From Glaucostegus cemiculus (taxonomy: Eukaryota), in the NCBI GenBank assembly GCA_976551045.1, contig CDPCPM010000157.1, positions 4,960,001 to 5,024,000 of the forward strand: DNA of 64,000 bases. The letters are read 5' to 3'. Position 1 is the stretch's first letter. Each line of letters opens with the position of its first letter. Shown here one piece after another: positions 3,266-61,090 of the stretch. The translations under genes and the position numbers were made by a program. The notes beneath the pieces were generated by a model. It saw only the letters and a list, made by a program, of their open reading frames with translations, made no database searches and was not told where the DNA came from.

Positions 3266-3361
3266 TGTCTAATATTAATACCAACTCCCTCCGTGTTCAT
3301 TGTCACAATACCACAGAGATACGTTGCAAACGTTATTAACACGAGGACTCCAGACACTGGA

Positions 3362-3590
3362 GGCACAAGAGATTGCAGATGCTGGAGTCTGGAGCAACAA
3401 ACAATCTGCTGGAGGAACTCAGCAGGTCGGGAAACATCTGTGGGAGGAAAGGAATTGTCAACATTTTGGGTTGAAACCCCGTCCTGATGCAGCATTTCGA
3501 CCCGAAATGTTGACAATTCTTTTCCTCCCACAGATACTGCTCAGCCCTCTGAGTTCATCCAGCAGATTGCTTGTTGCTCTAGACTACAGA
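3362..3590. mobile_element. Inverted pair of Penelope-type terminal repeats with hammerhead-like motif at the centre
   Basis: About 110-bp arms (gagcaacaaacaatctgctggaggaactcag.. / ..ctgagttcatccagcagattgcttgttgctc); gtcctgatgc..cgaaatgttgac at 3481-3514. Confidence 0.8.
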
Positions 3591-4335
3591 TATTGTCTTA
3601 TTCAGCTGGCTGTATGAATGAAGAGAGAAAGACTCCAGCTCTGGTGTCCAACTGTTTACCTGATGCTATTTTCCATGACTTTTCATCTTGTTTAATGACT
3701 CCTTTCTCTGCTCAATCTGGCGCTGACTTTGACATATGCCAGAACTGGGATTGGACACATTAGCACAACAGATCAAGGTCAATCCGAACATTTCCAGTCC
3801 TTTTAGTTTCTGTGATATAGCAATTTGTCCTTGAGATGATACATTCTTCTCTTCCATTCCTTAAACCTTGACTCTGTTAATTTACTATGAACCATTAATA
3901 GTCACATAATGGTAGAGCTATACAGAACAGAAATAGGCTCTTCAGCCCAAATGGCCTGAGTTGTCCAATTGAGCTAGTCCCATTTGCCAACCAAGTAACT
4001 GAACTGAGCTAGTCCCATCTGCAAATTATTAACTGTGTTATAATTTGAACAATGCTCATACAATGAGTTGTGGATTAATATCAAAAATTAGGGTTATTTA
4101 TATGAAAATCAAAAAAACTACAGATCCTGAAAGTCTGAACCAGAAACAGACGGTGCTGCAAATACACAGGAGGTCAGGCATCATCTGTGGAAAGGGGAAC
4201 AGGATTAATCTTTTAGGTCGGAAACCCTTTGTCAGTTCTGCTGAAAGATCTTCGACCTGAGATATTAACCTTGTTTCGCTTTTCTTGATTATTTATAGTG
4301 CATTTTCAGTAATCTAAATTCACATTGACATATTG

Positions 4336-6811: not shown

Positions 6812-6957
6812 CTCAAAACGCTGCGAGCTCACTCGCTTTCCTTTCTTGTTCCAGGTAACTCGTGGCTTGGGGCTTCCTGTGGCCTGGCAGACGAATGAAG
6901 CCACTCCTCCCGAAACACCAATCTGGTCACTGGGCACCTTCATGAACCTTGGAGGGG
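6812..6957 (-). CDS. PTPRS: LAR-family receptor tyrosine phosphatase (PTPRS-like), exon encoding first half of Ig1
   Basis: Translates (x)[48 protein letters not shown], the LAR-RPTP Ig1 N-half with the basic KKGKR glycosaminoglycan-binding loop. Acceptor ctcttgttctttccag| (phase 1), donor GAG|gtaatt (phase 0), 146 bp. Family certain; paralog label tentative. Confidence 0.95.
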
Positions 6958-9802: not shown

Positions 9803-10345
9803 CTGGTATTGTGTTCAGTTCCTGTCGCCTCATTATAGGAAGGATGTGGAAGCTTCAGAGAGGGTGCAGACGAGATTTACCAGGATGCTGCCTCGACTGG
9901 GGAGCATGTCTTATAGGTTATAGGATAGGTTGAGTGAGCTAGGGCTTTACTCTTTGGAGAGAAGGAGGATGAAAGGTGACTTGATAGAGGTGTACAGGAT
10001 GATAAGAGGCATAGATCGAGAGGGCAGTCAGAGACTTTTTCCCAGCGCAACAATGGCTAACATGAAGGGGGTATAATTTTAAGGTGATTGGAGGAAGGTA
10101 TAATGGAGATGTCAGGGGTAAGTTTTTTACACAGATAGTGGTTGGTGCATGGAACGCACTGCCTGCAGAGCTTGTGGGGGCAGATACAATAGGGACATTT
10201 AAGAGACTCTTAGTTAGACACATGAATGAGAGAGAAATAGGGGGCTATGTGGGAGGGAAGGGTTAGACAGATCTTACAGGATAAAACGTCGGCACAACAT
10301 TGTGAGCCGAAGGGCCTGTACTGTGCTGTAGTGTTCTATGTATCT
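9803..10345 (+). mobile_element. CR1 (HER1-like) LINE 3' fragment
   Basis: Encodes YCVQFLSPHYRKDVEASERVQTRFTRMLP and RGKFFTQIVVGAWNALP (CR1 ORF2 C-terminus); tail gaagggcctgtactgtgctgtagtgttctatg. Confidence 0.9.
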
Positions 10346-11500
10346 AGAAGGTTGCAACATGCCCAGAGGAAAGACGAGGTGTTGGTCCTTGTGCCTGCAT
10401 TGGTTTTGTTGTAGCAATGCAGGAGGCCAAAGAGAGAAAGGTCAGTGTGGGAGTGGGATGGGGAATTAATGCAGGAGGCAATGGGAAGCTCAGGGTCTCT
10501 TGTGTGGCTGAGCAGAGGTGCTCCACAAAGTGATCACATAACCCCCTCCCCTCCTCCCACCTTGCTCCATCTGTCTCTTGATTTTTTTTGCTCTCTCTCC
10601 TTGTCAACCACTTATCGCTCACTGGCCACCCCCAACTCCACTCTCCTTCTCTCCCCTACCCGGGGCAACCTGTCCATCATTTTTCACCCCTCGTCAGTCC
10701 ATCAATCACCTCGGACTCCTGTCTCACCACTTCCCTTCCCCTGTTTTTATTGGCCAGCTCAGTCCTGATGTTTTGACACAAAACATCAACAATTCCTTCC
10801 CCCCACCACAGATGCTGCTCGACCTGCTGAGTCCCTCCAGCAGATTGTTTGTTGCTCCACATAATCTGCGTTTGGTTTGCAGTTAATTGGTGCGGGAGGA
10901 GAATCGGTGGGGGTGTGATTAATGGCGATGTGAAAGGAAGAAGGGGGATTGGGTACGGATGGAGGCACAAGAGACGGCAGACGCTGGAACCTGGAGCAAC
11001 AAACAATCTTCTGCAGGGACTCCCCAATGCTGGAGGAACTCAGCAGGTCAGGCAGCATCTGTCGAGAATGCTGAAGAAGGGCCCTGACCCGAAATGTTGA
11101 CCGCCTACTTTTCTCCAGTGGTGCCTGCTGAGTTTCTCCAGCATCATGGTGTTTTTCACCTGGATTCCAGCATCTGCAGTTGTTTCTCTGCTGGAGGGAC
11201 TCAGCGGGTCGAGCAGCATCTGTGGGAGGAAGGGAATTGCTGACATTTTGGGTCGAGCCCCCACTTCAGGACTGAGAGTGGAGAGGAGAGGTAGCCAGTA
11301 TAAAGTTGGGGAGTGGTGGGACAGAGGCCAGATGCGATTGGTGGACTGGGGGTGGACGGGGGAGGCGGGGGTTGGAGATGAGTGGATGGTGGGCAGATTG
11401 AGCTATGTGGGAGGGGAAGGGGGATAGAGATGGGTGAACGATAGATGGAGGCAGGCACACAGAAGAGGGAGCTGGAGTCAGGAAGGGAGGGTGAAGCTGG
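10346..11500. mobile_element. Cluster of Penelope-like element fragments (GIY-YIG remnant on minus plus several terminal repeats in both orientations)
   Basis: Minus strand reads LCDHFVEHLCS (GIY-YIG C-part, cf. 29440). Repeated cagatgctgc..ctgctgagt..ccagca units; hammerhead-like cores at 11071-11103 (+) and about 11240-11275 (-). Confidence 0.8.
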
Positions 11501-13696: not shown

Positions 13697-14222
13697 CATA
13701 AGAGTCATACAGCATGGAAAGAGGCCCTTTGACCCAATTTGTCCATGCCGACCAAGATGCCTATATAAACTAATTCCATTTGCCCATGTTTGATCTCTCC
13801 AAACCTCTCTTATCCACGGAGATACTAGAATCTGGAGCAACATACAAAGCACTGGAGAAACTCAACGGGTGAGGCAGCATCTTATGGAGAGAAATGGATA
13901 GTGACATTTCGAGTCAAGGCCCTTCATCTGGACTAAAAGGTGTAAAGATGTGGAAAGATATATCCGTGAATGGGATCAAACCAGCGTGTCTAGAAAACCG
14001 GTGAGACAAAACCCCTCCTTGGTTCACCAGCTGATTCAATCGGTACCTCCCCTCGATCTTTCATTTGATGAAGGGTCTCGACTGAAATGTCAACCGTCCA
14101 TTTCCCTCCACAGTTGCTGCCTGACTTGCTGAGTTCCTCCAGGGCTTTGTGCTGTTGCTCTCCTGTACACGTACCTGTCTAAATGCCTTTTAAATGTTGA
14201 CATTGTGCCTGTCTCAATTACT
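13697..14222 (-). mobile_element. CR1 tail interrupted by an inverted Penelope repeat unit (13820-14160)
   Basis: gtcatacagcatggaaagaggcccttt..aaacctctcttatccacg | insert | tcctgtacacgtacctgtctaaatgccttttaaatg. Confidence 0.75.
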
Positions 14223-15645: not shown

Positions 15646-15671
15646 CACATCATTTGGTTAGATGAAGAGAG

Positions 15672-15820
15672 AAGAGACTGCAGATGCTGGTATCTGGAAG
15701 GAAAAGCAGAACGCTGGAAGAACTCAGTGGGTCAAGCAGCATCTTTCGGAGGGAAACACATCTCTTTGACAAAAGCCTTTTGCCTCCCACAGATGCTGTT
15801 CGACCCACTGAGTTCTTTCA
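15672..15820. mobile_element. Inverted Penelope-type terminal repeat pair
   Basis: gaactcagtgggtcaagcagcatct ... agatgctgttcgacccactgagttc. Confidence 0.75.
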
Positions 15821-16029
15821 TTGTTCTGCTTTTCATTTGCTTGGAAGGTGAGTCTGACTGCACCATGTGCTGGTGCGATGGGCAGGAGAGCTGTCAACTA
15901 CGCCAAGGCTGGCACCGAACTCCAATCAGAGAATGCGCTTCTACTTTCCCTTAAAGTTGTTTCAAGGACTGGGAAAAGTGGGTTTGAATCTGGGGCAGAA
16001 TGCAAGCAGGAGGAGGAAATAAGGAGGAG

Positions 16030-16380
16030 ACAACTCTGGAACAACAAACAAACTGCTGGAGGAACTGAGTGGGTCAGGCAGCATCTGTGGAGGCAACGGG
16101 ATAGTTGACGTTTCAGGCCGAGATCCTGCAGCAGGACTGAGAGTGCAGAGGGAAGATAGCGAGTGTAAAGAGGTGAGAGGGAGGGGTGAGGCAGGAGCTG
16201 GCACGTGATAGGTGGAACCCGGTGAGGTGGGTGACGATTGGCAGGTGGGGGAAGGGGGAGAGGCGGAGACAGTGGCTAGTGGGTGATAGCTAGAGACAGA
16301 TTAGGAAAGTGAAAAGAAGGGGCAGAGGGGAGTGGAGAGGGTGGAGGGAGAGACAAAGGCCAGGAGGTGATAAGTGGATA
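16030..16380 (-). mobile_element. Penelope-type terminal repeat with hammerhead-like motif (16102-16139)
   Basis: Minus: cagtc ctgctgc a ggatctcggcct gaaac gtc aacta, preceded by a pyrimidine-rich 3' UTR. Confidence 0.75.
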
Positions 16381-23508: not shown

Positions 23509-24584
23509 TTGCTATTTTGCACAAAAGCAGAGATGCTGGGAGAGCTCAGCTGGTCAAGGAGCATCTTGCATTGTTTTCTTTATGTCCCTTGCTCAATCCA
23601 TTTGGATAACATGCCTCGCTAACAGTCAGTACTCATGCTCCTTATCTCTGGACCTGTCTGACTCAATCTTCTTATAATCTTTTGTTTTACACTTTAATCT
23701 TCCCCCATCGCCCTGCTTTCAAAACTGATACTCCTCCATTCTCTCCCCAGTTCGGAGGAAGAATCACTGACCCGGGATGTTGGCTGGCTTCTCCATCCGC
23801 AGTTGCTGCTTGACATGCTGAGTGCTTCCACCATTTCAGTTTTTGTTTCCGATTCCAGCATTTATTTGATTTTTTTCCCCTCTTTTTATCAAATTACTGT
23901 TGCAATCAAAAGGAATGCAGAAATTGCTGTGTGTGTTTCTCATCTAGAATCGTCCGAAGAAAATGAAAATGACCATTTTTGATGTATACATTTCCACCCG
24001 TGTCTTGGCTTGTCCCAAGCTGCCAGCGTTGCTATGGTGACGGCTTAAACTGCTCGGCTTGGGTATCACAATTAGTCTGACTCCAAATCCTCACTGCAGG
24101 GCACCTTATTGCATTTTTAATTGAAAGGGATGCTTACTTTCCTCAAACTCTTCCCGAATCTGCTTCTCTCTCCCAAGGTCCTGCAAGTCAAATCTTTTCC
24201 CTTACTCCCAGAATTTGGGCAGTGAAGTTCAGCCCTGGGAGACCCTCGGCTAACTCAAACCCAGTGGATCTTTTTCCAAAAAAAGTGTAAGACAGACGTT
24301 GGTTGTAAGGAGGTAGGTAACACTCTCGTGAGGAACACTGAACCACAATAGTTTAAAAGGGGTTTGAAATGTGGTCAAAATAATGAGAGCAGAAACTTGC
24401 CTCAGGTATAATTCGCGATTGTCTCCTGGATCTTACAAGGAAGTGAGCAGTCAGATGACAACTTCCATCAGACTTCTACCATAACAGCAAGGTGAAGGTC
24501 CATACAACATTTCCAATATCTCCCTTTGAAACTGGCAGTAAACAGGAAGGTGTGCTAACCACATTTCTGTACTACTTCCAATTA

Positions 24585-25112
24585 TAGAATCATACGGCAC
24601 AGAAACAGGCCCTTTGGCCCATTGCGTTCCTGCTCACCATCAAACACCCATTTACACTAATTCCATTTTGTTGTCCCCATCCACACCCTCCCCCCCCAAG
24701 ATTCTACCACTCACCTACCCACTGGGGGCAATTTACAGTGGACAATGAACCTATCGATCCACACAGCTTTGGGACATGGGAGGAAAAACAAACAAGATGC
24801 TGAAAGAACTCAGTGAGACAAGGAGCTTCCATGGAGGGAAATGCATCTTCCAGTCCAGATGAAGGGTCTCGACCCGAAACATTGACTGTCCATCTCCCTC
24901 CACGGATGCTGCCTGATCTTCTGACTTCCTCCAGCATCTTGTGTGTTGCTCCAGATTCCAGCATCTACAGTCTCTTGCGTCTGCTCCCGGAGGAAGCCCA
25001 TGCAGTCGCAGGGAGAATGTGTGAACTCCACACAGACAGCACCGGCGGTCAGGATTGAACCTGGGTCGCAAGAGATATGAGGTAGCAGCTCTACCAGCAG
25101 CTCTGCACAATG
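24585..25112 (-). mobile_element. V-SINE (CR1-type tail) interrupted by a Penelope repeat unit (about 24790-24980)
   Basis: The V-domain is split; the insert carries cagtc cagatga a gggtctcgaccc gaaac att gactg at 24851-24888. Confidence 0.8.
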
Positions 25113-26640: not shown

Positions 26641-27782
26641 ATCAGCGGCACTGTGATAACAGGGAAGAGATTGGTGACTGTGGGTCAAATACCTCATCCC
26701 TCCTGCTTTCAGTAGCTGTCCCTCGTTGAAAATGAACCTGCAAACCTGCAGAAGTATACACACTGATACATCGCCATGCCTGTCACCCTGCTAAATGTAA
26801 CAGAGACTAAAATTTGTTTTCCTGTTTAATCAACTGGCGAAGAAATGAAATGTTCCAAGGCAGTAGGTTGTGAAATCACCAAAAGCATCTTCTTGGAAAA
26901 CTCTGTTTTAGTTCAGTGGTCATGGTAATTTCAGCAACAACAAACCAAGTTACAATCTCCAGACAACAAGGTCTAGGGGAAAATACACTTTACCTTCAGA
27001 CTTGTGAATTCTCTGCCTAATGCCCCTTCAGTCTCTCTTAGCCACCTGTGAACAAACTGGCTCTGACACACTCCACTGGCACGGAGGCTGGCAGGAACTG
27101 AGCGTGCGTTTCTGATCTCTGCCTCACCAGCGGCTGACAGTGTGTCTCTCAGCCTCCTTCTAAGCCAATGTCTTAGCACGCAACCATCTGCACCTCTGTC
27201 TCCAGCTCTCCTGAATCTTCTCCAGGAACAAGAGTTGGAATCACTTTACAGCGTCATTCTCGGATGCGATTTCTCTCCTTGAGCATAAATTCTGCTCCCA
27301 TTTGTGTGACACCTTCCTGCAACCCTTGGGTTCTTCCTGATTTGCTGACAGTGGCCACCATAAGGAAGGGAGACGGCTTTTTTCAGCCAAGAGGCCAAAA
27401 GCTGGTTTTGTGGAATCTGACCAAGGGCGGTCACATTCAGAAACCTTCTCCAGTATTCTTTTCCCTGTTAATCCAAACACTTCTGCACCTCCCAGCGCAG
27501 TTATTTAATTCTTCTCCAATCACAATTTGCCTCCTGCAACATATTGCTCTGTGCATCCTGAATCCAACCTCATGGTCCATGTCCTGGACAATTTAACTCA
27601 ATGTAACTGCACTGTGTAATGAATTGTCACTTGTACTGAGGTACAAGTGACAATAATAAACCAATACTAATACCAATTTGGATACCCTATGCCATTTTGA
27701 TAGTTTCCAGTTCACTGGTTCAACTGATTCATCTTCACCATGGACATCCCACCCCTCAACTCCCTCCATACCACAATAGGAG

Positions 27783-28035
27783 GTATTGGTATTGGTTTAT
27801 TATTATCACTTGTACCAAGGTACAGTGAAAAGCTTGTCTTACAAACAGATTGTACAGGTCAATTCATTACACAGTGCAGTAACATAGTACAGAGTGCATT
27901 GATGTCGTACAGTAAAAACAGTACAGAGTAAAGTGTCACAGCTACAGAGTAAGTGCCGTGCAATAAGGTGCAAGGCCACACAAGGAAGATCGTGAGGTCA
28001 TAGATGATCTCATTGTATAAGGGAACCGTTGTATA
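27783..28035 (-). mobile_element. Rex1/Babar 3' tail inserted in Penelope RT
   Basis: attggtattggtttattattatcacttgtacc.. is the reverse complement of the 30890-31153 tail. Confidence 0.85.
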
Positions 28036-28185
28036 AGGGTCTGAAGACCCTCTGCTTCTCCCTGAGAGGAGGTCCAACCAGCTCCCCTCTACCAACGCAC
28101 TCATTCGCCTGTCTGAACTTGAACAACTTCTCTTTCAACTCCACTCACTTTCTCCGGAAGAGTGGTGCAGCTATGGGCACTCACA

Positions 28186-28536
28186 CAGAGTCATAGAGTC
28201 ATAGGGAGATGCAGCAGGAATACAGGCCCTTCAGCCCATCAAGTCAGTGCCAACCAACAACCACCCATCCACTAATCCTACATTAATCCCCCTTTTCATT
28301 TTCCACACATTCCATCATCTCCGCCCAGGTTCTGTCACTCACCCACACACTAGGGACGACTTACATCAGCCAGTTAACCTGCACACCTTTGGGATGTGGG
28401 AGGAAACCAGGGCACCCGGAGGAAACCCACAGGGTCACAGGGAGAGCGTGCAAACTCCACACAGGCAGCGCCCAGGGTCAGGATTGAACCTGTGTCTCTG
28501 GCACAGTGAGGCTGCAGTTCTACCTGCTGTGCTGCC
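28186..28536 (-). mobile_element. V-SINE (CR1-type tail) inserted in Penelope RT
   Basis: Separates GAAMGTH from MGPSY; V-domain and tRNA head on minus. Confidence 0.85.
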
Positions 28537-29908
28537 ATGGGCCCAAGCTACCCCGGCCTTTTGTGGGATATGTGGAACTGTCAATGTGCCAGTCCTGCTC
28601 AGGCCTGCTCCCTCAATCCCTTCCAGTACACTGACGACTGCATTGGTGCTGCTTCCTCTACTCATACAGAACCCAAAAATAGCATCACTTTTGTAGCCAA
28701 TTTCCACCCTGCTCTCACCTTTACCTGGTCCACCTCCGACTCTTCTCTCCCATTTATGGATCTCTCTGTCTGAACCTCAGGGGACAGACTCGCCAAAACT
28801 TCACCACAAGCCCGCAGACTCCTGCAGCTCTCTTGACTACCCTGCCTTCTGTAAGGACCGCATTCTACTCTCTCAGTCCCTCCATCTCCATTGCATTTAC
28901 TTTGATCATGAGACGCTCTGTGGAGATGCTTTCAAATGTCTTTCTCCTTCCTGACCTGTGGTTTCCCCTCCACCGTGGTGGACAGACCCTCGACCACATC
29001 TCATTTCCTGCACCTCTGCTCTCACACCCTCTCCTCCTGGACAGAACGGGGACAAAGTTCTCTTGGCTCTTACCTTCCCATCACCAGCCTCCGCACTCAG
29101 TAGACCATCCGTTATAATTTCCACCAACTCCAACAAAATTCCACCCACCAGACACAAGTTCCCCTTCCCTGTCTCAGGGATTGCTCCTTCGTGTCCCCCT
29201 AGTTTGCTATTCTATCTCCACCAACCAGTCTCCATCGAATGGCACCTTACCATGCAACCACAGGAGATGAACTCCACTCCTTTCATTTCTTTCCTTTCTG
29301 CATTCCAGGAACCCGGAGTTTTTTCCAGGTATGGCAGCGATTCACATTCATTTCTTCCCATCTAGTGCACTGTAGTCATTGCTGACAATGTGACTTGCTC
29401 CACACTGGAGAAACCAATCGCAGGTTGGTTGGATCACTGTGCGGAGCACCTGAGATCGTTCTCCAGGAGTGACCTGAGCTTCTGGTTGCCTGCCACTTTA
29501 ATTCATCGTCCCCTTTCCCCCTGCCCTCTCCCTCTGTTGTCTCCTGCAATGAGCCCAGTGCAAGTTTGAAGAGCAATATCTCATCTTCCATTTGGCCACG
29601 ATGCAGCCTTCCAAACTCAATATCAAATACTCCAGCTTCAGGTAATTCACTCTTTCTTTCTGTCTGTATCAGAACTGCGCATTTCCACCGGTCTTCATAT
29701 TGACTCAGTTTTTCTTATCCAATGTGTATAGTCTGGCCTAACCCTAACCCACAGCCTTGCCTGTTACAATATTCTACACAGATAATGTGCTGGTAAATGT
29801 CCACATTAAGCCATCTGGTCCCACCCTAACAAAGATATTCCCTTTGTTCAACCCATCCACTCCCTACTTTCTCTGCCAATGTGAACTGACTTGTATTTCT
29901 CTCTTTCC

Positions 29909-29947
29909 CAATTCTGATGAAGGGTCCTGGACCTGAAATGTTAACTG
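29909..29947 (+). ncRNA. Minimal (Penelope-type) hammerhead ribozyme motif, best-preserved core
   Basis: caatt-CTGATGA-a-gggtc ctg gacct-GAAAt-GTT-aactg: stem I, core, stem II, GAAA and NUH triplet, directly downstream of the Penelope ORF. Confidence 0.65.
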
Positions 29948-30419
29948 TTTCTCCTTCCACGGATGCTGCCCGACCTGATGAGCACTTGCTGTTTTTATTT
30001 TTATTTCAGACTTTCGGTATCTGCAGTTTTTAACTTTGCTTGTGCCTGTAATTCTTCCGAGGCTATCTCCTCTCTCTCTCTCTCTCTCTCCCCCCCCCAC
30101 CCCCCCCACATTCCTTCCAGCTTCTCACTATGGGTGAGTCTCTCTCTCTGTTTCCAGCTTTTCTCTCTCTCTGGTCTTCAGCTTCTCTTTGCGACCATTT
30201 ATTTCTTCCTATGATTCTAGCAGAAAGTTCCACCTGACTATGAAATATAAACACCATGAAGTACAACCCTGTGAGAAAACTTACAGTGGAACAGTGTTAC
30301 ACATGAGGTCTGCATGCCTTTGAGCTGGTGCCACATGTACCTGAAATTCCTGCATGTTCCCCGTGCATTGCTTGCAGCATTGAAACACTGCCGCTTGTGA
30401 TGAGATTCACACTGGCGCA

Positions 30420-31153
30420 CAGTAATGGAGTTGAGAGCTTCAAGTTCCTGGGAGTGATCACCGCTAGCCTGTCCTGGTCGAATCACGTAGATGCCACAAC
30501 CAAGAAAACTCACCAGCGCCTCTACTTCCACAGGAGGCTAAAGAAAATCAGTACGTCCCCTTTGACACTCACCAACTTTTACCGACGCGCCATAGAAAGC
30601 ATCTGATCTGGATGCATCATGGCTCGGTACGGCAACTGCTCTGCCCAGGACCACAAAAAACTGCAGAGAGTTGTGGACACAGCCCAGCGCATCATGGACA
30701 TCAGCCTCCCCTCCTTGGATTCTTGTCTTTTCCTGTTGCTGTCTTGGTGAAGCAGCCAGCAATAATCAAAGACCCCACCCACCCGGGCCATTCTCTTCTC
30801 TCCTCTTCCATCAGGTAGAAGATACAGGAACCTGAGGGCACGTACCACCAGGCTTAAGGACAACTTCTACCCCACTGGGATAAGACTAGTGAACGGTTCC
30901 CTTATACAATGAGATGGTCTCTGACCTCACGATCTACCTTGTTGTGACCTTGCACCTTATTGCACTGCACTTTCTCTGTAGCTGTGACACTTTACTCTAC
31001 TGTTATTGCTTTTACCTGTACCACCTCAATGCACTCTGTACTAACCCAATGTAACTGCACTGTGTAATGAATTGACCTGTACGATCAATATGCAAGACAA
31101 GTTTTTCACTGTAACTCGATACAAGTGACAATAATAAACCAATACCAATACCA
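30420..31153 (+). mobile_element. Rex1/Babar-type LINE 3' fragment, (ACCAAT)n tail
   Basis: VESFKFLGVI..LSWSNHVDATTKKTHQRLYF.RRLKK..LTNFYRRAIESI..WYGNCSAQDHKKLQRVV. Confidence 0.92.
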
Positions 31154-31209: not shown

Positions 31210-32825
31210 CAGTCATGGAGATCCAGCACAGAAAGAGGCCCTTCGGCCCATCAGGTCCATGTCAGCTTTTATTCCCCACTAATCCCATTTTCCTGCATTA
31301 GGACCGTATTCCGTACCTTACCCATTTAAGTGCCTGACTAAATGTCTCTTAAACGGAGAGACTGTATCTGATTCCAGGCATAAACCTTTCTCTGAGTCAT
31401 AACACTTACCCCTAAGAAGCCCTTTAATTCTCTTTCCTCTCACCTTAACCCTATGCCCTCTTGCTTTTTATATCCCTACCTATGGAAAAAGAATTTGACT
31501 ACCTACCTCTCATAATTATGCCTCTCATAATTTTTTATACCTCTATCGGGTCACTCCTCAGCCTCCTTCGCTCCAGAGAAAACGAGCCCAGCCCATCCAA
31601 TCTCTCCCCATAACTGTAGTTTCCCAATCCAGGCAACATCCTCGGCACTCTCTCCCGAGCAACGTCGCCCTTCCTGCAGTGCCGTGACCAAACTGCACAC
31701 AACACAACAAGTGTGGTCCAAACAGTGTTTTGTACAGTCGCAATATAATGTCCCAACTCTTATATTTTCCTATCTTCGGTCCTGAAGAAGGGTCCTGACC
31801 CGAAACGCTGACCGCCTGCTTTCCTCCACGGATGCTGCCTGGCCTGCTGAGTTCCTCCAGCGTCACTGTGTTTTTCATCCCGATTCCAGCATCTGCAGTC
31901 CTTTGTTTCTCTTATATTTTATGCCCTGACTTGTGAAGGCAAGCTTGCCATGCACCTTCTTCACCACCCTATCCACCGGTGTTGCCACTTTCAGGCAACT
32001 ATGAGTTGGACCCCTAGTTCATCATCTATCACCACCTTGTGCCCACCCCATCTCCCCTCTTTTGTCCACCTATCACTGCTCTGCTTTTCCCTCCTATATA
32101 TTGGGCTTCCCCTTTTCCTATCTTCAGTCCTAAGGGTCCCGACCTGAAATGTTGACCACCTGGTTTTCTCCACGGATGCTGCCTGGCCTGTCGAGATCTT
32201 CCAGCATCATCGTGTCTTTCCTCTAGGTTCCAGCACCTGCAGTCCTTGTTTCTCTGTTCATCAGCGTTCTTTTGCACCCTACCATTTACTGTATATGTCC
32301 TACTCCTCCGTGACTTCCCAAAATGCATCCCCTCGGATCTGCCGGGATTAAATTCCGCCTGTCAACCCAACCTTCCAACTGACCCATTTCCTGCTGTAGC
32401 CTTGGACAATCTTCCTTACCATCCACACCAACACCCGTTTTGTGTCATCCGCAAACTTACTGATTATTCTTCTATTTTTATGTTGTGTAAATTATGTATA
32501 ATTTACGTTAATTTCAGTTTATGTTAACTTATGTTTGTCATGTTGGTAATGAACTGAAAACTGCAGCAAAAAGCTAATTTTCATTTATACCCTGGGTACG
32601 TATGCCTACGGCAATAAATAAATTGAACTGATCTTACATTCACATCCAAATTTTTAATGGCAAAGGTCACGGCACTGAGCCCGGTGGTACATCACTGGTC
32701 ACATATTTTCAATCAGAAAAGTATCCTCCTACCAGTACTCTCTGCCTCCTATCGCCAAGCCAATTTTGGATCTAATTAATCAGCTTGTCTTGGATCCCAT
32801 GTGCCTTGATCTTCTGGACCAACCT
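31210..32825 (-). mobile_element. CR1 LINE fragments with two Penelope repeat insertions (about 31765-31912 and 32035-32255)
   Basis: Minus: MHFGKS..YTVNGRV, IILRLYKTL.GPHL.CCVQF, RRLRSDPIEV; inserts contain hammerhead motifs. Confidence 0.8.
31777..31814 (+). ncRNA. Minimal hammerhead ribozyme motif (cleavage triplet mutated)
   Basis: cggtc-CTGAAGA-a-gggtc ct gaccc-GAAAC-gct-gaccg; perfect stems I and II. Confidence 0.6.
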
Positions 32826-33869
32826 ACCACGTGGACCTTATGAAGGGAAGATGCTCCCTCTGCTGCCAAACAATGTTACTGGTCATTGTGTAGCTTTGGG
32901 AGCCTTCAGCACAGGAACAGACATCCCGAAACTGCACTGCTTTGCTGGAGACATTCGTGGAAGCAGCAAGGATTAGAAGAGAGATCCTGCATGCCCGGGG
33001 GCACAAAAACACAACAACGTCTGGATAGTGACTTGGGAGGATGAGACAGGGAGATTAACGTAGGACAGCGACACCCTGAGGATCTGGTTCAGCGTCGGAC
33101 GAAATCTAATGAAACTCAATTGGGAAGCCAAGCTCGGTGAGCAGATCCGTAAATCCTTCCACCAACAGCTATCCCACCACAGTCAGATGCTGCCACAGGC
33201 TTCGCTCCTCTGTTGTTCAGCTAACAAACTCCAACACTGCTCCTACTGAACCTAAGTAGATCCCACTACATCCTTACACACTTACCATTAGTCCACACTT
33301 CACACACGTCAGGCATTCAGGCATGGACATGTTGCAGGACACTGACACACATCATTTCGAGGTAGCAGCTCTAACCCATGCCCATGGGCTCAGTGGCCCG
33401 GAGGAGAGTGTAAGATGATGGTACACTCATGGATTGTGGGAGATGATGGTTCCCTCATTGCAATTTCCTCTCCTTCTGTAATCAATGCTGGAAACACTCG
33501 GCACTGACAAATTCCACGTCAATGACCATTCAGCAAGTTCTGTTGAAGGGTCTTCACCCTGAGACATTGACTGCTTTTCTCTGCCACGTGCATCACTTTC
33601 CTTCCTATATCCCTCTTCCCAGCTCATCCCGCAACCACTTCTTGGTTTCACAAAGCAGTTGGTGTAAGCGTGGCTGCAATCAACCTGCTGCGTCTGATTC
33701 CACGGCTGAAATCAGGGCGGAGTGGAATCTTTGCTTTTAATCTTCGCCGGTGACTGATCGGACACAGCTGAGTAGCTTGCTGGGCCATTTCAGTGAACAG
33801 TTAGGAGCTGACCAGATCGGTAGGTCTGGAGTCACACAGTAACCAGACTTGGTAAGGACGTTAGATTTT

Positions 33870-36055: not shown

Positions 36056-36224
36056 AAAAATGTTTGATTTCCAACTTCTCTCAGTTTTGATTAAAGATTA
36101 TCAACCTGAAATATTAGCTCTGCTTCTCTCTCCACAGCTGCTGCCTGACCTGCTGAGTATTCCCCGCATTTCCTGCTTTCATTTTGGTTGGTCCCAGGAT
36201 GCTGCTGTTGGAGCCCAGCCAATG

Positions 36225-37939: not shown

Positions 37940-38145
37940 AGAGACACAAGTGACTGCAGATGCTGGAATCTGGAGCAACAAACAATGTGCTGGAGGAACT
38001 CAGCGTGTCAAGCAGCATCTGTGGGACAGAAGAAACCGTCGGCGTTTCAGGACTGATGCAGAGGTTCGACTGGAAACATCGACAGTTCCTTTCCTCCCAC
38101 AGGTACTGCTCGACCCGCTGAGTTCCTCCAGCACCTTGCTTGTCG
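37940..38145. mobile_element. Inverted Penelope-type terminal repeat pair
   Basis: gtgctggaggaactcagcg.. / ..cgctgagttcctccagcac with ctgatgca..gaaacatcgac at the centre. Confidence 0.8.
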
Positions 38146-40164
38146 CGCGCCATTGCAGACACACCTAATTCTGTAAACTGCTTTGTCCCCAGCCGCAGAA
38201 TCAAACCTTGGCAATCCTCTCAGCTCCAACAGGATCCCCTCTAACCCCGTCCTTTTGAAAGCTGCAAAGTGATTGACAGGCTCTGGGTGGCGTGTTCCTA
38301 CCACCACCCAGCCCCAATTTTCCTGTGTGTGGCTCACACTGAACATGGTGCAACTTAATGGGGACAGTGTCAGCCCAGCAACACATGAGGATTGACACCT
38401 GAGACACTTACAGTGAACTGTGCAATTTGTGCGTCTTGTAAGCACCTGAAGGAGGACAGAGGAGCAACTGGTCAAATATTGACACCCCTTTTTCTCCTCT
38501 CCCATTTGTATTTTTTGAAAGAATCTTTCACCCTTCTCATTAGAAGGAAAGCAGTCCTAATTACTCAATTCTGTTGATTTATTTTCTGCAATATCTTTGT
38601 TGATGATGACATAAGCGTTTGGCTGGCTCGGAGGAGCCTAATTAACTTGCACAGCTCGGATAACACAAACCTTGGGTTAATGAGGAGCTCATCAGATGTT
38701 AATTCAGCTCTTGCGCATCAGCAGCCCTCCGAGACAGGCGGTTACCCTGATGAGGTCACTGCCACTTACTATTAATCAAAAAATATTCCAGGGAGCAAAA
38801 ATAAACAGAAAGGATGTGAAAGTTACTGTCAGCTCTTTGTTGCTCCTGTGGCATCTTTTGAGTAGTGGATGGAGACTGAAAGAGAGAAAATGGGAAATGA
38901 AGGAAATATATTCTATGGGCAGCCTTCGATTGGAGCGGAGAACATCACCATGCACTGTGGTTCCTTTAACATAGTAAATCAAACCAAGAGAGTCATCAAA
39001 CAAAGAGAGAGACTGGAAGATGTTAGGACAAATGACTGAAAAGTAAGACTCAAGTCTATGGAGTAGCAAGACGTCATAGGTGAGGGCTTCAAGGAGCAGA
39101 GTGAGATCACCTACTCTGCTAATCTTGGGGATACAAACTCCTCACAATGGTCAACATGAGGGCTGATTGTGACAGGGAATGATACGCACCAGTAACTTCC
39201 CACGTTCAGTTAAAGCTCCTTCAACAAAGACACAGTTTCTCAGCCTATCGTTGTTGAAGGAGCTTTAGCTGGCTCCTGGCACCAGTGCTGATGAAGACAG
39301 AGATCCTGCTGCTCATCACTTACCCACTGATCCTTCATGTAACGTACGTGAATGGGAGAGCAGGTTGTCGCCTCCACTAGTAACTACATTAACTTGCACT
39401 GACAGACCATCCCCGAATATTACACAGGTTCTGTTTTTACAGACGTCCATTGATTTTGTCCATAAATTGGAAAATGCTCAAAAATCAGTGGATTACGGTA
39501 ACCACACCTCCACAGTACTGGAATGCATGGCATCAAAAGCACATCAGACTGATAGGAAAGAACAGTTACTAAAAGTGGTAAGAGCGCAGAAACTAGTTCT
39601 GCTGTTCATAGGAACAAACCTATGTAGATACGTCGGACTTTTAAACTTAATATTATTGTGGGAGCCCATTCGTATGTAGGTGAGACGATAAGTCGGGCAT
39701 TCATGATGCGAGGATGACCTACACATTGAACCTTTGAAGTGGAAAGAGATTTGAAGAACAGATATATCCGTGACTGGGACTAAACCAGTGTGTCTGGAAA
39801 ATGTCTGATGCAAAACCCCTTCTTACTGCATCAATTGACTCAGTCAGGAAACTCACTTTCCAAAGTCTGCTGCCTGAAATCTTGCACCTTAAACTTTCTG
39901 GCCAGAGGCAAATTATACAACCAGTGTGAAAACAAAACCCTGCAGATCCTGGAGACCTGAAACAAAAATAGAAAATCCTGGAAACACTCAGCAGGTTTGT
40001 CAGACGCTGTCTGACTTGCTGACTGTTTTCCAGCAGTTTCTGTCACACAAGTTGGTGTGTTGGGTGGGAGCTGTAGAAGTTGTACAAATTCCCTTGCCTT
40101 TTCGCAACAGACCCCAGAGATCGGAATCGCTCTCGGGTGCTGAAGCGACGATCCCCTCAGGCTC

Positions 40165-43974: not shown

Positions 43975-44345
43975 GAAAACAGGAGCAGGAGTATGCTACC
44001 GGGCCCCTCAAACCTGCCCTGCCATTCAATATAATCAGGGGTGATCTACCCCAGGTGAAGGGACTCGACCCAAAACACAGACTGACCCTTTCCCTCCACA
44101 GATGCTGCCTGACCCGCTGAGTTCCTCCAGCGCTTTGTGTGTTGCTCCAGATTCCAGCGTCTGCAGTCCCTTGTGTCTCCGTGACCTACCCCTGGCCTCC
44201 TCTCCTACTTTGTGCCCGGTCCCCATTGCCCTCAATCCCCCGATCTTCCACAGATTTACCTACCTCCACGTTAAATACTTCTAATGAGCAAGCCTTCGCA
44301 ACTCCCGGGGGTAAGGAATTCCAGAGATTCACTCCCCTCTGCAAG
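43975..44345 (-). mobile_element. CR1 3' end interrupted by a Penelope repeat (about 44050-44180)
   Basis: aggagcaggagta..ccattcaat..gaattccagagattcac; insert cagatgctgcctgacccgctgagttcc. Confidence 0.7.
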
Positions 44346-52990: not shown

Positions 52991-55037
52991 CCTTTTGCTC
53001 CCTATAAAAGCTTTTCATCTTCGGTTCTGAGGCAGGACATTGTGGAGAGAGGTCAACATTGAAAACCTGCCACCAGTGTGTGGACATTCAGCCTTTCAGT
53101 TTGAGGTTCTCCAACAGCAACAGCAAGTTCTCCCAAAGGGTGAGAGGAATGGTTGCCAATTCTGCATTGAATGGAATAGGAAGATCCCATTTGACATCTG
53201 GGTCTTTGCAAAGCCATTTGACCTCAGCTATAACAGTGCAGTTGGCGGAATCTCCCTTGGTTAAAATGAACTAGCAATTCTGCTTCTCACGCTCAGTCTG
53301 TGAGCTTCAATGATGGTCCACATCTATGGGTGTCCCTGGTTTGGCTCTTGTTGAATATCTCACCAGGAGCCACCATCAAAGATTCGACAGAAATATCTAC
53401 AAGGGCAAGCCACTGACAGCAATGACCATAGAGCTGTAGCTCAAAGGAAGGCTCAAAACCCTCAACATTCAAGGTAAAAGAAGAATTGGGGGGTGGGGAG
53501 AGGAACTGGGCAGATTTCCAGTAATGAACAGCATTAAAATTAGCAGCCACAGCATCTGCTACAAATGTTCCCTCAAAGGCCACTGCCAACAACTGCAACA
53601 TGTTTAGCAGCTGTCAAGAGAGAGATGGGCTCTGGAATGTTTTGAAAGCAGTTTGAGAATCTGCTGAAAGAGAATAGAGTCACTGGGCTCATTCATCAAC
53701 AGAGGCAAAACCCTGTCTCATGGCTGGTCTCAAGGCCAAAAAAAGTCAAAGTACAGTGTGTTCTGACCACAGTTACAATGAAAGGACTGTGAAAAAGACC
53801 AGAGACTCAAGAGTCCTGATGCAGGGTCTCAACATGAAACAGTGACTATCCCTTTGCCTCCACAGAGGTTCCTTGACCCAGAGTCTCCCCAGCAGTTTGT
53901 TTATTGCTGTGAAAAAGACTGCCTCACAAACTAGATATACCAAGGCAACTTCCTCATTCTACATTTTATAACTTCTAACAAGAAACCATCAGTAAGTAAA
54001 GTCACAGTAAGGTCAATCTATATTTTTGTGAGGAGATTTGCTCTGAGGTTCCATGAGACAGAGGCCTATCAATAACCCATGCTCCCTTCAAGTGTGCATT
54101 TACCTGACAAACTCGTGTCCTATTTATCCTTAAATGCTGCACTAACTCCATTGGTTTTTGGATAAAGTTCAACTACACTGTTCATCCATTAAAACTCAAC
54201 ACCTCACCATTCCCATTCCACCAAGTTCCAAACCCATTGCCCTCACTTTTGGAATCTACACCGTCTTGCTCCACTTCTCTATTGCAAACTTACCCCCATT
54301 AAAGCCCTGGCCTATATTCCAGGCAAACAGCTCTCCGGTCCTCTGTTTCATCCCATCTACTGTGATTACTTGGTGATCAGGGGCTCGCACCTTCCAAGGC
54401 ACCATGCTCTGATTTAGCTTTACTAAAAAATTTTTACCTTCAGTGTCGCCTTTAAGAAATTCCTGAAAACCCATCTTGCTAACAATACTTCTGGCATCTC
54501 TCCAAATTACACAAACTATCACCATAAATTTACAATTCTACAAATTATTCAAACTGTCTCTTTACTCAGTGTGGTGCCTCAGAACCCATAATTGTGTAAA
54601 AGATGGTTGCTCTTATTCAGGGTCTGTTGGCGTATCCATCTTGATTCAGTGACATCGGAATATGTCTTACGATTCAAGTGTCAAGTGGCTGACTCACATT
54701 ATCCCACATATACTTGAACCAGGTGAGAATTTAGGCAGCTTAACAATGGAACTTCCTTGTAACTTGAAGGAATATCAGTGTCTTTTCTGTAATCACCTCT
54801 TCAAGACAGATAAGGAGATTGCCTCATACTCTGGTGCTCCATGGCCGCTGTGTACACCATCTATAATGTGCAGTTTTTTCTGCTGCACCTCCCCAAACCC
54901 ATGACATCTGTCATTTTGCTGCTGGATATTGAAGGGCTTGAGTCTGGTGGGGAAGCCCCTCAAACAATGACAGGGGTTATCACCCCATGGGGGGGCCACA
55001 TGAGTGGCAATGGTGCTATGTGAAAACAAAAAAATGC

Positions 55038-55325: not shown

Positions 55326-55919
55326 CTATCGAATATACCAATCAAATAACGCTCAGAATGTAAAGAGCTTTGCACTGTTTATCTTTGATTTTATTTTTAT
55401 AATGAATAAAGTGTACTCTTGAAATAAAACAAATCTAAAAGGACAAGGACACCAGGAACTTGTAACTACTTCAGCAGCATACTCCCCACCTCAGTGATTA
55501 GGAAATATATCATTGCCGAGTTAAAATCCTGGACTCCCTACCTAATAGAACATAAACTGCAGAGAAAGCAGCTCACCACCAACATCTCCAGGGAAATTAG
55601 AGATGAGCATTAAACATTGCCCACATTCTGCACGAGGACAGAAAAAAAAATTAAGATGCCTCTTATAAAACGGATAAAGCAGTAATTATCATTAGGTTCA
55701 TTTGGTTCAATAAGTACAATCTATTTCCATATGACAATGAAAACAATGAATGCACAACTTTACCCCACGTCAAAGGCTTGCCTTGCATCAACAATATAAC
55801 TGTTGTACATTCCCAGTCAGTGTTTGGAACAGAAGCTCCCCTCTGCCTGTGGATCTGTGCACTTCGCAGGCTTTTCCCGCCAAGTGTCCTGTTTCTAAGT
55901 CAGACTCCATTTTCTCGTT

Positions 55920-56385
55920 CACAAGCAATCTGCTGGAGGAACTCAGCGGGTCGAGCCGCATCTGTGGGAGGAACGGAATTGCCAATGTTTCAGGTTGAAG
56001 CTCTGCACCCGTTCCAGCAACTGAGTTCCTCCAGCAGATTGTCTGTCGCTGCAGATTCCTGCATCTGCAGTCTCTTGTGTCTCCATTTTCTTGTGTGCGC
56101 TTTTTTTCAAATGTTGTTCCTCAGACAAATCAAATACATGCTCAGCATAATGGGTGAGAAGTGGTTTTGTTTAACTATTTATGCAAACAAACCAACAGAG
56201 ACACAGGAGATTGCAGATGCTGGAATCTGGAGCAACAATCTGCTGGGGGAACTCAGCGGGTCGAGCAGCATCAGTGGGGGGGGGAGGAATAGGACACAGG
56301 GTTTCGACCCGAACACCGATATTTCCTTTTCACCCCCACAGATGATGCTCGACCTGCTGAGTTCCACCAGCAGATTGTTAATTGT
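55920..56385. mobile_element. Two adjacent inverted Penelope-type repeat pairs
   Basis: Pairs at about 55920-56085 and 56197-56385, arms aatctgctggaggaactcag / ctgagttcctccagcagatt. Confidence 0.8.
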
Positions 56386-57109
56386 TAACTAGCCTCTGCA
56401 GAAAACAAGATCCATTTATATATTAGCGACTCTTCCACTAGTTATCCTTATTCTGGAAATCAGTTTGAATGAACCGACATTCTTTCAAAATTTAGCATTA
56501 AAATAAACTCTTTTCCTCACATTATTGGTGAAAATATGACAAGTATGCAGTATAATATATATTTAGTCTATGGTTGCCACTCTTGAATCCAACAGACACT
56601 TGTTGGCAGTGGTATGGGAGGGGAGGGGGGGAGGAACAGCAAGCAGAACTGTTGCCCCTGGCTCAGTCCCAAGTATGAGGGCGTTTATTCAGGAGTTATC
56701 TACCTGAGGCCTCAACAACATCACATCACATACTCATCTCTCATCCTCAATTTCCTTTACATTTTTTTTCTTTTTCCCCTTCTAACGACCCCGATGGGAT
56801 TTGTACAGGCGTTCTATACACTCTGCTCTCTCTTTCTACCTGCAGAGAAAGGCGAAACAATGAAGGTGAACTAATCCTGGTATTCCTCGCAGTTGTGAAA
56901 TCCATTGATCAACAGCTTGAGTGGCTCTGACTCTGCTTCTCCAGTTCCTCATTCAGAGAACCGGAAGTGTAGGTTCAAGGATGTAATCCCGAGGAAGGAA
57001 GGTGGGACGGGACTGGGAGGCAGGGCTGGACTACAGCAGACATTGATTGCTGCCGTACCATTTCTGTTAACTTTGATGTGCCAATTACATCGAGTCACAC
57101 AGCAAAGGC

Positions 57110-59004: not shown

Positions 59005-59207
59005 TTCTTTGGAGGGAAATAAACAATTGACGTTTTGGGCCAAGACCCCTCATCAGGACCATTCATGTGCCCTGACGAAGGGTCTCGACCTGAAATATCA
59101 AAGGTTTATTTCCCTCCATAGATGCTGCCTGACCTGCTGAGTTCCTCCAGCATTGTGTGTGTGTGTTGCTCCAGATTCCTGCACCTGCACAATCCCTTGC
59201 GTCTCTG
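59005..59207. mobile_element. Inverted Penelope repeat pair with two back-to-back hammerhead motifs
   Basis: Minus 59024-59060 ggtc ctgatga g gggtcttggccc aaaac gtc; plus from 59072 ctgacga a gggtctcgacct gaaat atc. Confidence 0.8.
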
Positions 59208-59400: not shown

Positions 59401-60254
59401 GTCTGGTACCAGTTGAGTGGAAGATCCTTGGTAGTAATGGCCATGACTTTCCAACTTTGGAGCATGGGAACGTTTACACCCAACTGAATGGGCAGGGTTC
59501 GATATTTCAAACTTGCCCGTTCACCTATTTCCACTCTCCCCTCCTCCAATCTACCCATCATCCCTACTCACCTGGATCCACCTATTGCTTCTTAGCTCTT
59601 GCTCCACCCCTTCCCTCCATCTTTTTATGCTAGATATCTCCCCTCTATCTTTTAATCCATATTGAGGGTCTCAACTTGAAATTTTGACTCTCCATTTCTC
59701 TCCACAGATGCTGCCTGACCTGCAGAGTTCGTCCACCATCTTGTGCGTTGCTTCAGGATCTGCAGTTACTTGTGTCTCCTCTTAATTCATGTGATGGACA
59801 GCACCTCTACAAATGCATCACCTCCTCTGTTAACTGGTGTGGGAGAAGAGTTGAGGCCTGGGCTGAACAATGTGGGCTGAAGGGCCTGTACTGTGCTGTA
59901 GTGTTCTATGATCAGACTGAATGGTGGGGCAAGCTTCAGAGGCTTTCTATTGAAGGATTCCAGATCTGAAGTGTTAACCACTTCTCTTTCCACAGTTACG
60001 GTCTGACCCACTGAGTGTTTTTATTCGATGGAGCAGGTGACTTACTCCTGCTCCTGTTTTCTTGTGTTCTTGTGGGTACTGCACAGCAGTACAAGTCAAA
60101 AATAAATGGGAATCTCAAGATTATAAGATTTAACCAATGCTGCAAGAATCTTCATAGTTACTTGATCTATTGACACCTGCTCTTCATAGCAATAGAGTTC
60201 AGAAGAGAAAGCATTTAAGAAGTTTTACAATACTTTGCTAGATCTCTTAGTCAT

Positions 60255-60615: not shown

Positions 60616-60954
60616 CCCTGAGGCACTTTGAGCACTGACAAGTGGATCACTTTTTCCGGTGGCACTCCATGTTGGAAACCAGCATTCCCTGGTCAGGAGG
60701 ATAAAGCCAGAAACATCTCCTTCTGGCTCAACATAAACCCCTCGGGTTTGTTCAAGAGACCTCCCTCTACTGCACCAGGGGAACAGTTTTCCAGTTTCCA
60801 CACCAACCATCACACTAGATTAAAGGAAGGGCCAGGTTTGATGTTGAGAGACAGCTTCCTTAGGAAGGAATGTCTTGAATAGGGGCACCCTCTCAGGACA
60901 AGGGGGCCAGTCAATTCGGACTGAGATGAGGAGAAACAGGTTTATCAAGAGCAT

Positions 60955-61090
60955 CATACAAAAGTGCTGGAGGAACGCAGGGGTCAGGCAGCATCTGTGG
61001 AGGGAAATGGACAGTTGACATTTCAGGGCAAGACCCTTTGTCTGGACTGGTCCTCCAGCCAGTCATGCCCACTGAGTTCCTCCAGCAACA
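60955..61090. mobile_element. Penelope repeat (minus) with short inverted arm
   Basis: Minus: cagtc cagacaa a gggtcttgccct gaaat gtc aactg. Confidence 0.7.

Follow-up and report, generated by a model that had tools for sequence, protein, structure and literature searches.

Minimal hammerhead repeats in a stretch of the Glaucostegus cemiculus genome are probably the decaying 3′ ends of Penelope-like elements

What are the short hammerhead-like repeats that crowd a 64,000-nucleotide stretch of the Glaucostegus cemiculus genome (hereafter the window)? We conclude, with high confidence, that they are the 5′-truncated, decaying 3′ ends (pseudo-LTRs, pLTRs) of Penelope-like elements (PLEs), likely of the Neptune type, that the canonical lineages of the family carry the published minimal type I hammerhead, and that the copies in the window are broken. 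The family structure, the link to reverse transcriptase (RT) and GIY-YIG endonuclease, at least five lineages, CpG decay, head-to-head pairs, target-site duplications and clustered 3′ ends were all directly observed.

We rebuilt a family profile from 26 strong copies. It detects 38 fragments in the window, and in 24 of them the match spans the hammerhead (16 on the plus strand, eight on the minus strand). The reversed-sequence control for this profile gave no match, and control patterns gave none genome-wide, where two exact canonical motif patterns occur at 2,270 and 2,454 places; because both controls are empty, the repeat in the window is not a product of chance. All 16 sites cited by the first-pass annotation carry it, the estimate there of about 20 motifs was correct, and the repeat makes up most of the window's largest direct-repeat families. 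The accompanying density of about one per 3 kb holds locally (one per 2.7 kb in the window) but not genome-wide. In an even sample of large contigs, made up of 160 stretches of 10 kb at regular spacing (1.6 Mb of 2,852 Mb, a non-random draw), we counted 324 fragments, with 143 copies that span the hammerhead (one per 11 kb); the window is about four times denser in such copies. Extrapolated from these 143, the genome would hold some 2.5 × 10^5 spanning copies, some thousands of them intact.

Which element carries the motif? The copy at 29909–29947 had been placed behind a Penelope RT/GIY-YIG fossil, and this is where it lies: on the same strand, about 260 nt separate the end of the fossil from C3. 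Here and below, nucleotides follow the standard hammerhead scheme, and distances are counted from C3 as position 0, with the cleavage site at +28. The parts of this element are:

28017–28181, plus strand: fragment of Penelope RT, 5′-truncated and broken (tblastn E 3e-5 to 1e-4, translation)
28182–28536, plus strand: other dispersed repeats (families D8, D9 and D15) inside the RT fossil, the RT match resuming downstream
28537–29650, plus strand: C-terminal part of Penelope RT, then the Cys linker (decayed) and the GIY-YIG endonuclease, interrupted by stops and frameshifts
29651–30030, plus strand: 3′ UTR or 3′ pseudo-LTR holding the motif, with pyrimidine tract, hammerhead and conserved downstream segment
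29909–29947, plus strand: minimal type I hammerhead motif of the oldest lineage (U2.1–A1.1, G10.1–U11.1)

The fossil matches the RT, linker and GIY-YIG parts of its genomic relatives, and the proposal that the repeats are relics of Penelope ribozymes is borne out by the position of the motif in the window, where it comes after RT/GIY-YIG remains of like strand (tblastn E 2e-16 to 1e-20). Of 14 loci fetched from the motif-pattern and RT searches, most show the repeat behind ORF remains of the same orientation; where RT is present, the distance from the RT motif to the repeat downstream is mostly about 1.3–1.4 kb. ORF remains occur within 1.5 kb upstream of 26 of the 324 sampled fragments. A 57-aa piece of the fossil gave 6,696 first-look candidates in the genome; among the 150 scored, the longest open frame was 488 aa, and neither an intact ORF nor a full pLTR–ORF–pLTR copy was found. 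The linker, decayed in the window fossil, reads C-x4-C-x2-C at locus L061, which also has a GIY-YIG domain with CxxC and two His; the motifs of a C-terminal GIY-YIG with CCHH are visible both there and in L053. Pfam matches to GIY-YIG (E 0.0098) and RVT_1 (E 2e-5) both fall below the curated cut-off. The linker motif, which is also found in Nematis (PMC8557442), makes it likely that the carrier belongs to the Neptune clade. The hammerhead motif has its location in the pLTR of a PLE.

Several other features accompany the element. A second GIY-YIG remnant, at 10316–10491 on the minus strand (tblastn E 6e-5), stands head-to-head with the plus-strand pLTR copy at 10756–10862; the two are possibly one long inverted insertion split by another repeat. 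The segment from about +50 to +85 (e.g. window 24905–24935) is present in all lineages and as conserved between them as the hammerhead core; it precedes the first cluster of 3′ ends described below, and may be a protein-binding or RT-start hairpin. The D8, D9 and D15 repeats at 28182–28536 are SINE-like, with 4–11 copies in the window, and may resemble shark HE1 SINEs. Two related 3′ ends of another, LINE-like, repeat lie at 27560–27680 and 30430–31150, on either side of the fossil region.

Clustering of 235 copies on columns outside the hammerhead, combined with profile assignment, separates at least five lineages. The even sample supplied 130 of these copies; the others came from the window, from its flanks and from pattern and RT searches, which biases the divergence of the young groups downward. 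The lineages are:

(a) oldest: stem I CAGTT/AACTS, GUU triplet, G10.1–U11.1; includes the 29909 copy
(b) canonical: stem I CAGTC/GACTG, GUC triplet
(c) youngest: A at N7, loop CCTG, stem I CAGTC/GACCG with an A–C mismatch
(d) U4A
(e) A9C, mostly with only three stem I pairs

The last two are lineage-wide changes. Among the 143 sampled copies U4A occurs 27 times and A9C 33 times, against 0–2 times for the same substitutions elsewhere in the core; A9C is associated with 11 diagnostic sites downstream and U4A with one. About 40% of spanning copies belong to these two lineages, and otherwise intact motifs with U4A or A9C are found at 267 and 242 places genome-wide, respectively. Core changes of this type would, by the results of hammerhead mutagenesis, impair cleavage. 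An extra A between A9 and G10.1 is present in 134 of the 143 sampled copies, and in A9C copies it might substitute for A9. CUGANGA, GAAA and UH follow in order in three lineages (2,454 exact matches) but not in the U4A and A9C lineages. G10.1–C11.1 is a G–C pair with CpG decay in four lineages, and G–U in the oldest (T at 11.1 in 31 of 36).

Does stem I covary between subfamilies, as had been claimed? The claim was overstated. The gtt/aac form is a true compensatory swap of C–G to U–A at 2.1–1.1, a single event in the old lineage, and T-T-A at 2.1/17/1.1 occurs in 29 of the 143 sampled copies. On the other hand, cggtc/gaccg defines no subfamily: in the lineage concerned, 38 of 43 copies have A at position 2.4 (three have G) and 30 of 44 have C at 1.4, an A–C mismatch, and the 31777 copy carries a single-copy change. 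Outer stem I pairs are mismatched in other lineages also (A–C, A–A). When 20 copies (16 from the window, four from other loci) were aligned, 78% of cells were paired and seven of 500 shuffles equalled the covariation score; relatedness by itself can produce such a value. We rejected one further candidate, a ‘CAGGC’ group with a stem I mismatch (L007, L009, L010 and L012–L015), as a subfamily; its members have kilobases of common flank and a motif without an adjoining RT match, and represent a single insertion in a duplicated genomic segment. (Its profile was one of the six used in lineage assignment, and took one of 210 sampled copies.) The segment that holds this pLTR insertion, in the same loci (contigs C3 and C4) and in L055–L057, is multi-kilobase and present in at least seven copies at 75–98% identity, which suggests a duplicated gene cluster.

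How intact are the motifs? Besides the 29909 copy, the window holds the following:

3357–3590, both strands: head-to-head pair, A9C lineage, motifs of both arms broken
4112–4271, both strands: head-to-head pair, old lineage, broken
10756–10862, plus strand: copy with a core deletion
10959–11188, both strands: head-to-head pair, young CCTG-loop lineage; the plus arm begins at C3 (11071) and therefore lacks the 5′ strand of stem I
11187–11305, minus strand: copy in pre-mRNA sense, A9 and G12 changed
13820–14160, both strands: head-to-head pair, U4A lineage
15663–15829, both strands: head-to-head pair, arms without hammerhead
16033–16175, minus strand: long copy, A9C lineage, A6 also changed
23512–23863, both strands: head-to-head pair, decayed
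24784–24984, both strands: head-to-head pair, plus arm (24851) with U4A and G16.2A
31751–32254, plus strand: two direct copies 344 bp apart, young lineage; the 31777 copy has U16.1C and the 32125 copy lacks four core bases
33532–33586, plus strand: decayed copy
36077–36172, plus strand: decayed copy, old lineage
37940–38190, both strands: head-to-head pair, plus arm with an A9C core
44047–44181, plus strand: solo stump, U4A lineage, 12-bp target-site duplication at the 5′ end
53809–53908, plus strand: solo stump, A9C lineage, starting at −4, with a 14-bp direct repeat ending 11 nt upstream
55901–56401, both strands: two head-to-head pairs, decayed
59006–59206, both strands: head-to-head pair, minus arm with G12A, plus arm (59072) without stem I
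59619–59780, plus strand: long decayed copy
60944–61050, minus strand: stump starting at −5, U4A lineage

CUGANGA is retained in five of the 24 spanning copies, GAAA in 16, UH in 21 and ACGU in three. The three boxes occur jointly in three copies (11071, 29914 and 59072), none of which retains both stems; no copy has all features, and the intactness of the examples given in the first-pass annotation was overstated. The core of the 29909–29947 copy, described there as intact, does have the letters CUGAUGA, GAAA and UU, but reads AUGU for ACGU and has G–U at 10.1–11.1 and an A–C mismatch in stem I, leaving four of five stem I pairs; its predicted fold is without stem I (z +1.06). Single copies fold no better than shuffles (z −1.5 to +1.1). 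A strict descriptor had no match in the window and three in the 1.6-Mb sample, and an Rfam scan returned no hammerhead family at E up to 5. The window copies are broken and likely inert.

All features are kept in two of the 143 sampled copies. The three critical CpGs (11.1–12, 15.2–16.2 and 17–1.1) are about half decayed, with ACGU retained in 24 and G12 in 91 of the 143; in the palindrome columns C–A (55), T–G (42) and C–G (24) are the forms expected of a decayed CpG. Identity is 91% at the non-CpG core positions and 89% at the conserved downstream columns. As these are alike, there is no detectable selection on the copies.

The anatomy of the insertions is that of PLEs. Head-to-head pairs number 63 in the even sample (324 fragments) and 10 in the window (38 fragments), and the junctions and arm lengths differ in nearly every pair. 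Both arms belong to the same lineage in 18 of 20 testable pairs against a chance expectation of 22%, a comparison that is partly circular in that the profiles include the core. The 3′ ends (n = 218) form two clusters about 35 nt apart, 73 ends at +85 to +99 and 91 at +120 to +134, the second abutting the end of the profile; two clusters are what one would expect of an element with an optional tail and a pair of sites at which reverse transcription starts (PMC11167929). Direct repeats of 9–16 bp accompany 10 of 44 short solo copies, compared with two of 220 mismatched controls. PLE insertions are usually truncated, with inverted copies (PMC8557442, PMC3846280). At L023:1496–1580, two hammerheads stand in direct tandem about 40 nt apart within an inverted unit, and the first of them retains both its core and ACGU; by sequence this is a candidate for a natural minimal dimer.

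By analogy with the anole element (PMC11167929), the protein of the element would nick DNA, reverse transcription would start at one of two internal sites 90–130 nt downstream of C3, and it would often halt early, commonly at the front edge of stem I. Extension of both strands, or fold-back of the new DNA on short homologies, would then leave a head-to-head pair. In an active tandem element, to judge from other species, the hammerhead would cut after GUC or GUU only as an ACGU-paired dimer, perhaps aided by protein. The inserted copies show no sign of cutting at the GUC/GUU site.

If cleavage does not mark the inserted copies, where do they begin? The 5′ ends (n = 210 mappable) are distributed as 11 at −30 to −11, 61 at −10 to −1, 34 at 0 to +9, 28 at +10 to +25 and one at +26 to +30. 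Solo copies with unrelated flanks show the same peak, a few of them being long diverged copies mis-called short. In genome-wide patterns the peak is broad (−6 to +2) with its maximum at −3: starts with a non-element flank number 239 at −5/−6, 366 at −4, 803 at −3 and 508 at −2, with 116 at 0 (longer pattern) and 164 at −10 (inflated by mutated long copies). Corrected for the flank, with letter chances estimated at 0.28 for A/T and 0.22 for G/C, these become about 940 (−4), 1,430 (−3) and 900 (−2). In the youngest lineage there are about 775 starts at −3 against about 150 (55 matches) at the cut site. Even the latter are doubtful, since 31 of the 55 open with AG and, of 20 AG-start loci, 13 are inverted-arm junctions (by script) and seven are exact joins in stem I register (by eye); apparent cut-site starts are therefore largely fold-back on GAC homology.

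The 5′ ends pile up more sharply than plain random truncation would predict, and this speaks against truncated 3′ ends as the whole account. Many of the short copies could instead be full-length: their template would then be an RNA of about 100–135 nt whose transcription begins at an initiator-like YCAGTY at the stem I front, and the Penelope protein would mobilise it in the manner of a SINE. We regard this as unlikely, though worth weighing; it modifies the truncated-PLE explanation and does not replace it. The crowding of ends just before C3, the unrelated flanks of solo copies and the several duplications that abut the 5′ end favour such an RNA, as does the 5′ strand CAGTY, which is kept in every lineage while its 3′ partner drifts; an Inr-like TCACT is reported from a rotifer Penelope pLTR (PMC3846280). 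Among the matches listed, G precedes 42 of 100 starts at −4 and 14 of 69 (non-C bases) at −5/−6 (hand counts, p = 0.004). But A is as common (45 of the 100 listed, with T at 13), so that a cap-derived G is not established, and the start peak is broad. Moreover, the start moves with stem I length despite identical CAGTC letters, the 3-bp-stem lineage contributing 59, 54, 47 and 35 per 100 matches listed at −2, −3, −4 and −5/−6, respectively (hand counts, trend z −3.6), which points to structure and so to the second possible reading, an arrest of reverse transcription at the motif in its folded or protein-bound form. A cDNA hairpin is nevertheless rejected as the sole stop signal: the gain predicted for the lineage with the 5-bp stem is a weak 1.8 kcal/mol, and for that with the 3-bp stem it is nil. 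In three runs of raw RNA reads, all from one study of a related organism, the family is abundant on both strands; no pile-up of read ends was seen at the stem I front or the cut site, a weak test in fragmented libraries, and the rows listed contain no end-to-start (circular) joint. A splice-acceptor model, with the pyrimidine tract and the CAG at stem I, has a precedent in a D. virilis intron (PMC4209133). It finds no support here: solo copies have no upstream exon in common, and no GT–AG joint occurs among the RNA rows listed; a constraint on the CAG is possible. The RNA reads of the related organism skip 121–123 bases at L029:1701–1823, where depth falls sharply; either L029 likely holds an insertion or a shorter form is common in the family.

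Could the repeats be a separate non-autonomous family, spreading as a fixed unit in the form of a MITE-like hairpin or a non-LTR retrozyme? Inverted pairs account for 85 of the 210 arms mapped and, within the A9C group, for 33 of 53; an uncontrolled search gave 11 of 20 fetched units a 10–15-bp direct repeat at each side. Non-LTR retrozymes, which originate from pLTRs, are reported in one chondrichthyan genome (bioRxiv 2026.07.22.740005). Yet no fixed unit has been amplified, given the variation of junctions and arm lengths from pair to pair, and the MITE-like form is rejected on that ground; inverted truncated copies are the usual form of PLE insertion (PMC8557442, PMC3846280), and the window has no tandem array, its only direct pair having two broken cores. 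This origin is very improbable. Still harder to credit is chance likeness of a common repeat to the hammerhead consensus. The empty Rfam scan and the poor folding of single copies speak for it, but the boxes, the extra nucleotide, G10.1–C11.1 and ACGU stand in order in thousands of exact copies, at the published pLTR position.

The remaining alternative is that one or more copies act as functional intronic ribozymes on a PTPRS-like pre-mRNA. The sole host exon identified in the window is:

6812–6957, minus strand: start of the first Ig domain of a PTPRS-like gene, AG/GT bounded (E 4.5e-29 to PTPRS chain 2yd9_A)

The region lies upstream of the acceptor of this exon, which makes the intron named in the first-pass annotation plausible; and the family is abundant in the related organism's RNA. 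Because the exon is on the minus strand, so is the pre-mRNA. The 29909 copy and the 15 other plus-strand spanning copies, among them the three with intact core letters, are antisense to it, and all eight sense copies carry core changes. Domesticated intronic hammerheads of the HH9/HH10 type are intact, in pre-mRNA sense and under selection; here the sense copies are broken and decay is like that of neutral DNA. The one plausible cis-dimer of the window, the direct pair at 31751–32254, is broken in both copies and antisense, and cleavage requires a partner motif (PMC4209133). A role in the pre-mRNA is largely refuted.

How do the truncated PLE ends compare with known systems? Dimer cleavage of such motifs has reportedly been described by Lunse et al. 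Metazoan PLEs carry minimal hammerheads in their pLTRs as dispersed single copies and opposite-strand pairs, with low, dimer-only activity (PMC4209133, Cervera and De la Pena 2014). On all the sequence features that can be tested here, the canonical lineages count as such hammerheads: type I without stem III, a palindromic 15.2–16.2, an extra base between 9 and 10.1, G10.1–C11.1, a helix I of 4–5 bp, and a pLTR location, mostly dispersed and in opposite-strand pairs (PMC4209133). They differ in a helix II of 4 bp with a 4-nt loop and in number, the motifs running to thousands per genome in fish, coelacanth and frog (PMC4209133) and to far more copies here. The core variant described in the text covered is U3–A8, whereas two amplified lineages here are U4A or A9C, and these would lie outside the published descriptor. 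No shark or ray is named in the text covered of PMC4209133 or in two of its supplements. Our literature search returned nothing relevant on A9C or U4A hammerheads or on chondrichthyan Penelope hammerheads, although file 1 of PMC4209133 and the bioRxiv supplements may list some.

With the Neptune-clade EN+ PLEs (PMC8557442) the carrier shares a C-terminal GIY-YIG, a CX2-5CxxC linker, heavy 5′ truncation, an adjacent inverted 5′-truncated copy and an optional tail of 30–40 bp, but no full-length copy was recovered here. The Poseidon element PAc of Anolis has two RT start sites of a kind that would account for our two 3′-end clusters (PMC11167929). Both strands are cleaved and extended in PAc, hammerhead mutants still insert, no RNA reads start or end at the cut site, and hammerhead cleavage is protein-assisted but dispensable for insertion in vitro (PMC11167929). 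Unlike our carrier, PAc is without the Neptune linker. The hammerhead of PAc also contains the start of its ORF, whereas in our family we saw no ORF running on from the motif, and the genomic 5′-end pile-up at stem I is unmentioned for PAc in the available excerpts of PMC11167929. Animal non-LTR retrozymes are likewise pLTR-derived, with a type I hammerhead, and occur in one chondrichthyan genome (bioRxiv 10.64898/2026.07.22.740005), but they are defined by at least two consecutive tandem units with complete ribozymes, whereas the window copies are solo or inverted and broken and the only direct pair (31751/32092) has both members broken.

The pattern of minimal hammerheads in pLTRs, dispersed and in opposite-strand pairs, is already published (PMC4209133); the finding is in that respect ordinary, and its interest had been rated too high. 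As a ribozyme finding it adds a new host lineage and a very high copy number. What of the ribozyme itself, whose function in PLEs has been called unclear (PMC8557442)? The U4A and A9C lineages would each number tens of thousands of copies, and almost no copies start at the cut site. Together with the 5′ ends at stem I, these lineages suggest that cleavage is not what makes the copied RNA. We therefore put forward, tentatively and leaning slightly against it, the view that several hundred thousand insertions in this genome record a Penelope retrotransposition that proceeds without the hammerhead cut, the copied RNA beginning, or its reverse transcription halting, at the stem I front, and that the fold of the motif or an overlapping initiator, not catalysis, sets most insertion sizes and templates some fold-back junctions in precise register with stem I. 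The stem I ends and the amplified core variants provide independent in vivo support for the dispensability of the hammerhead at the insertion step, and the U4A and A9C copies are natural variants open to direct assay.
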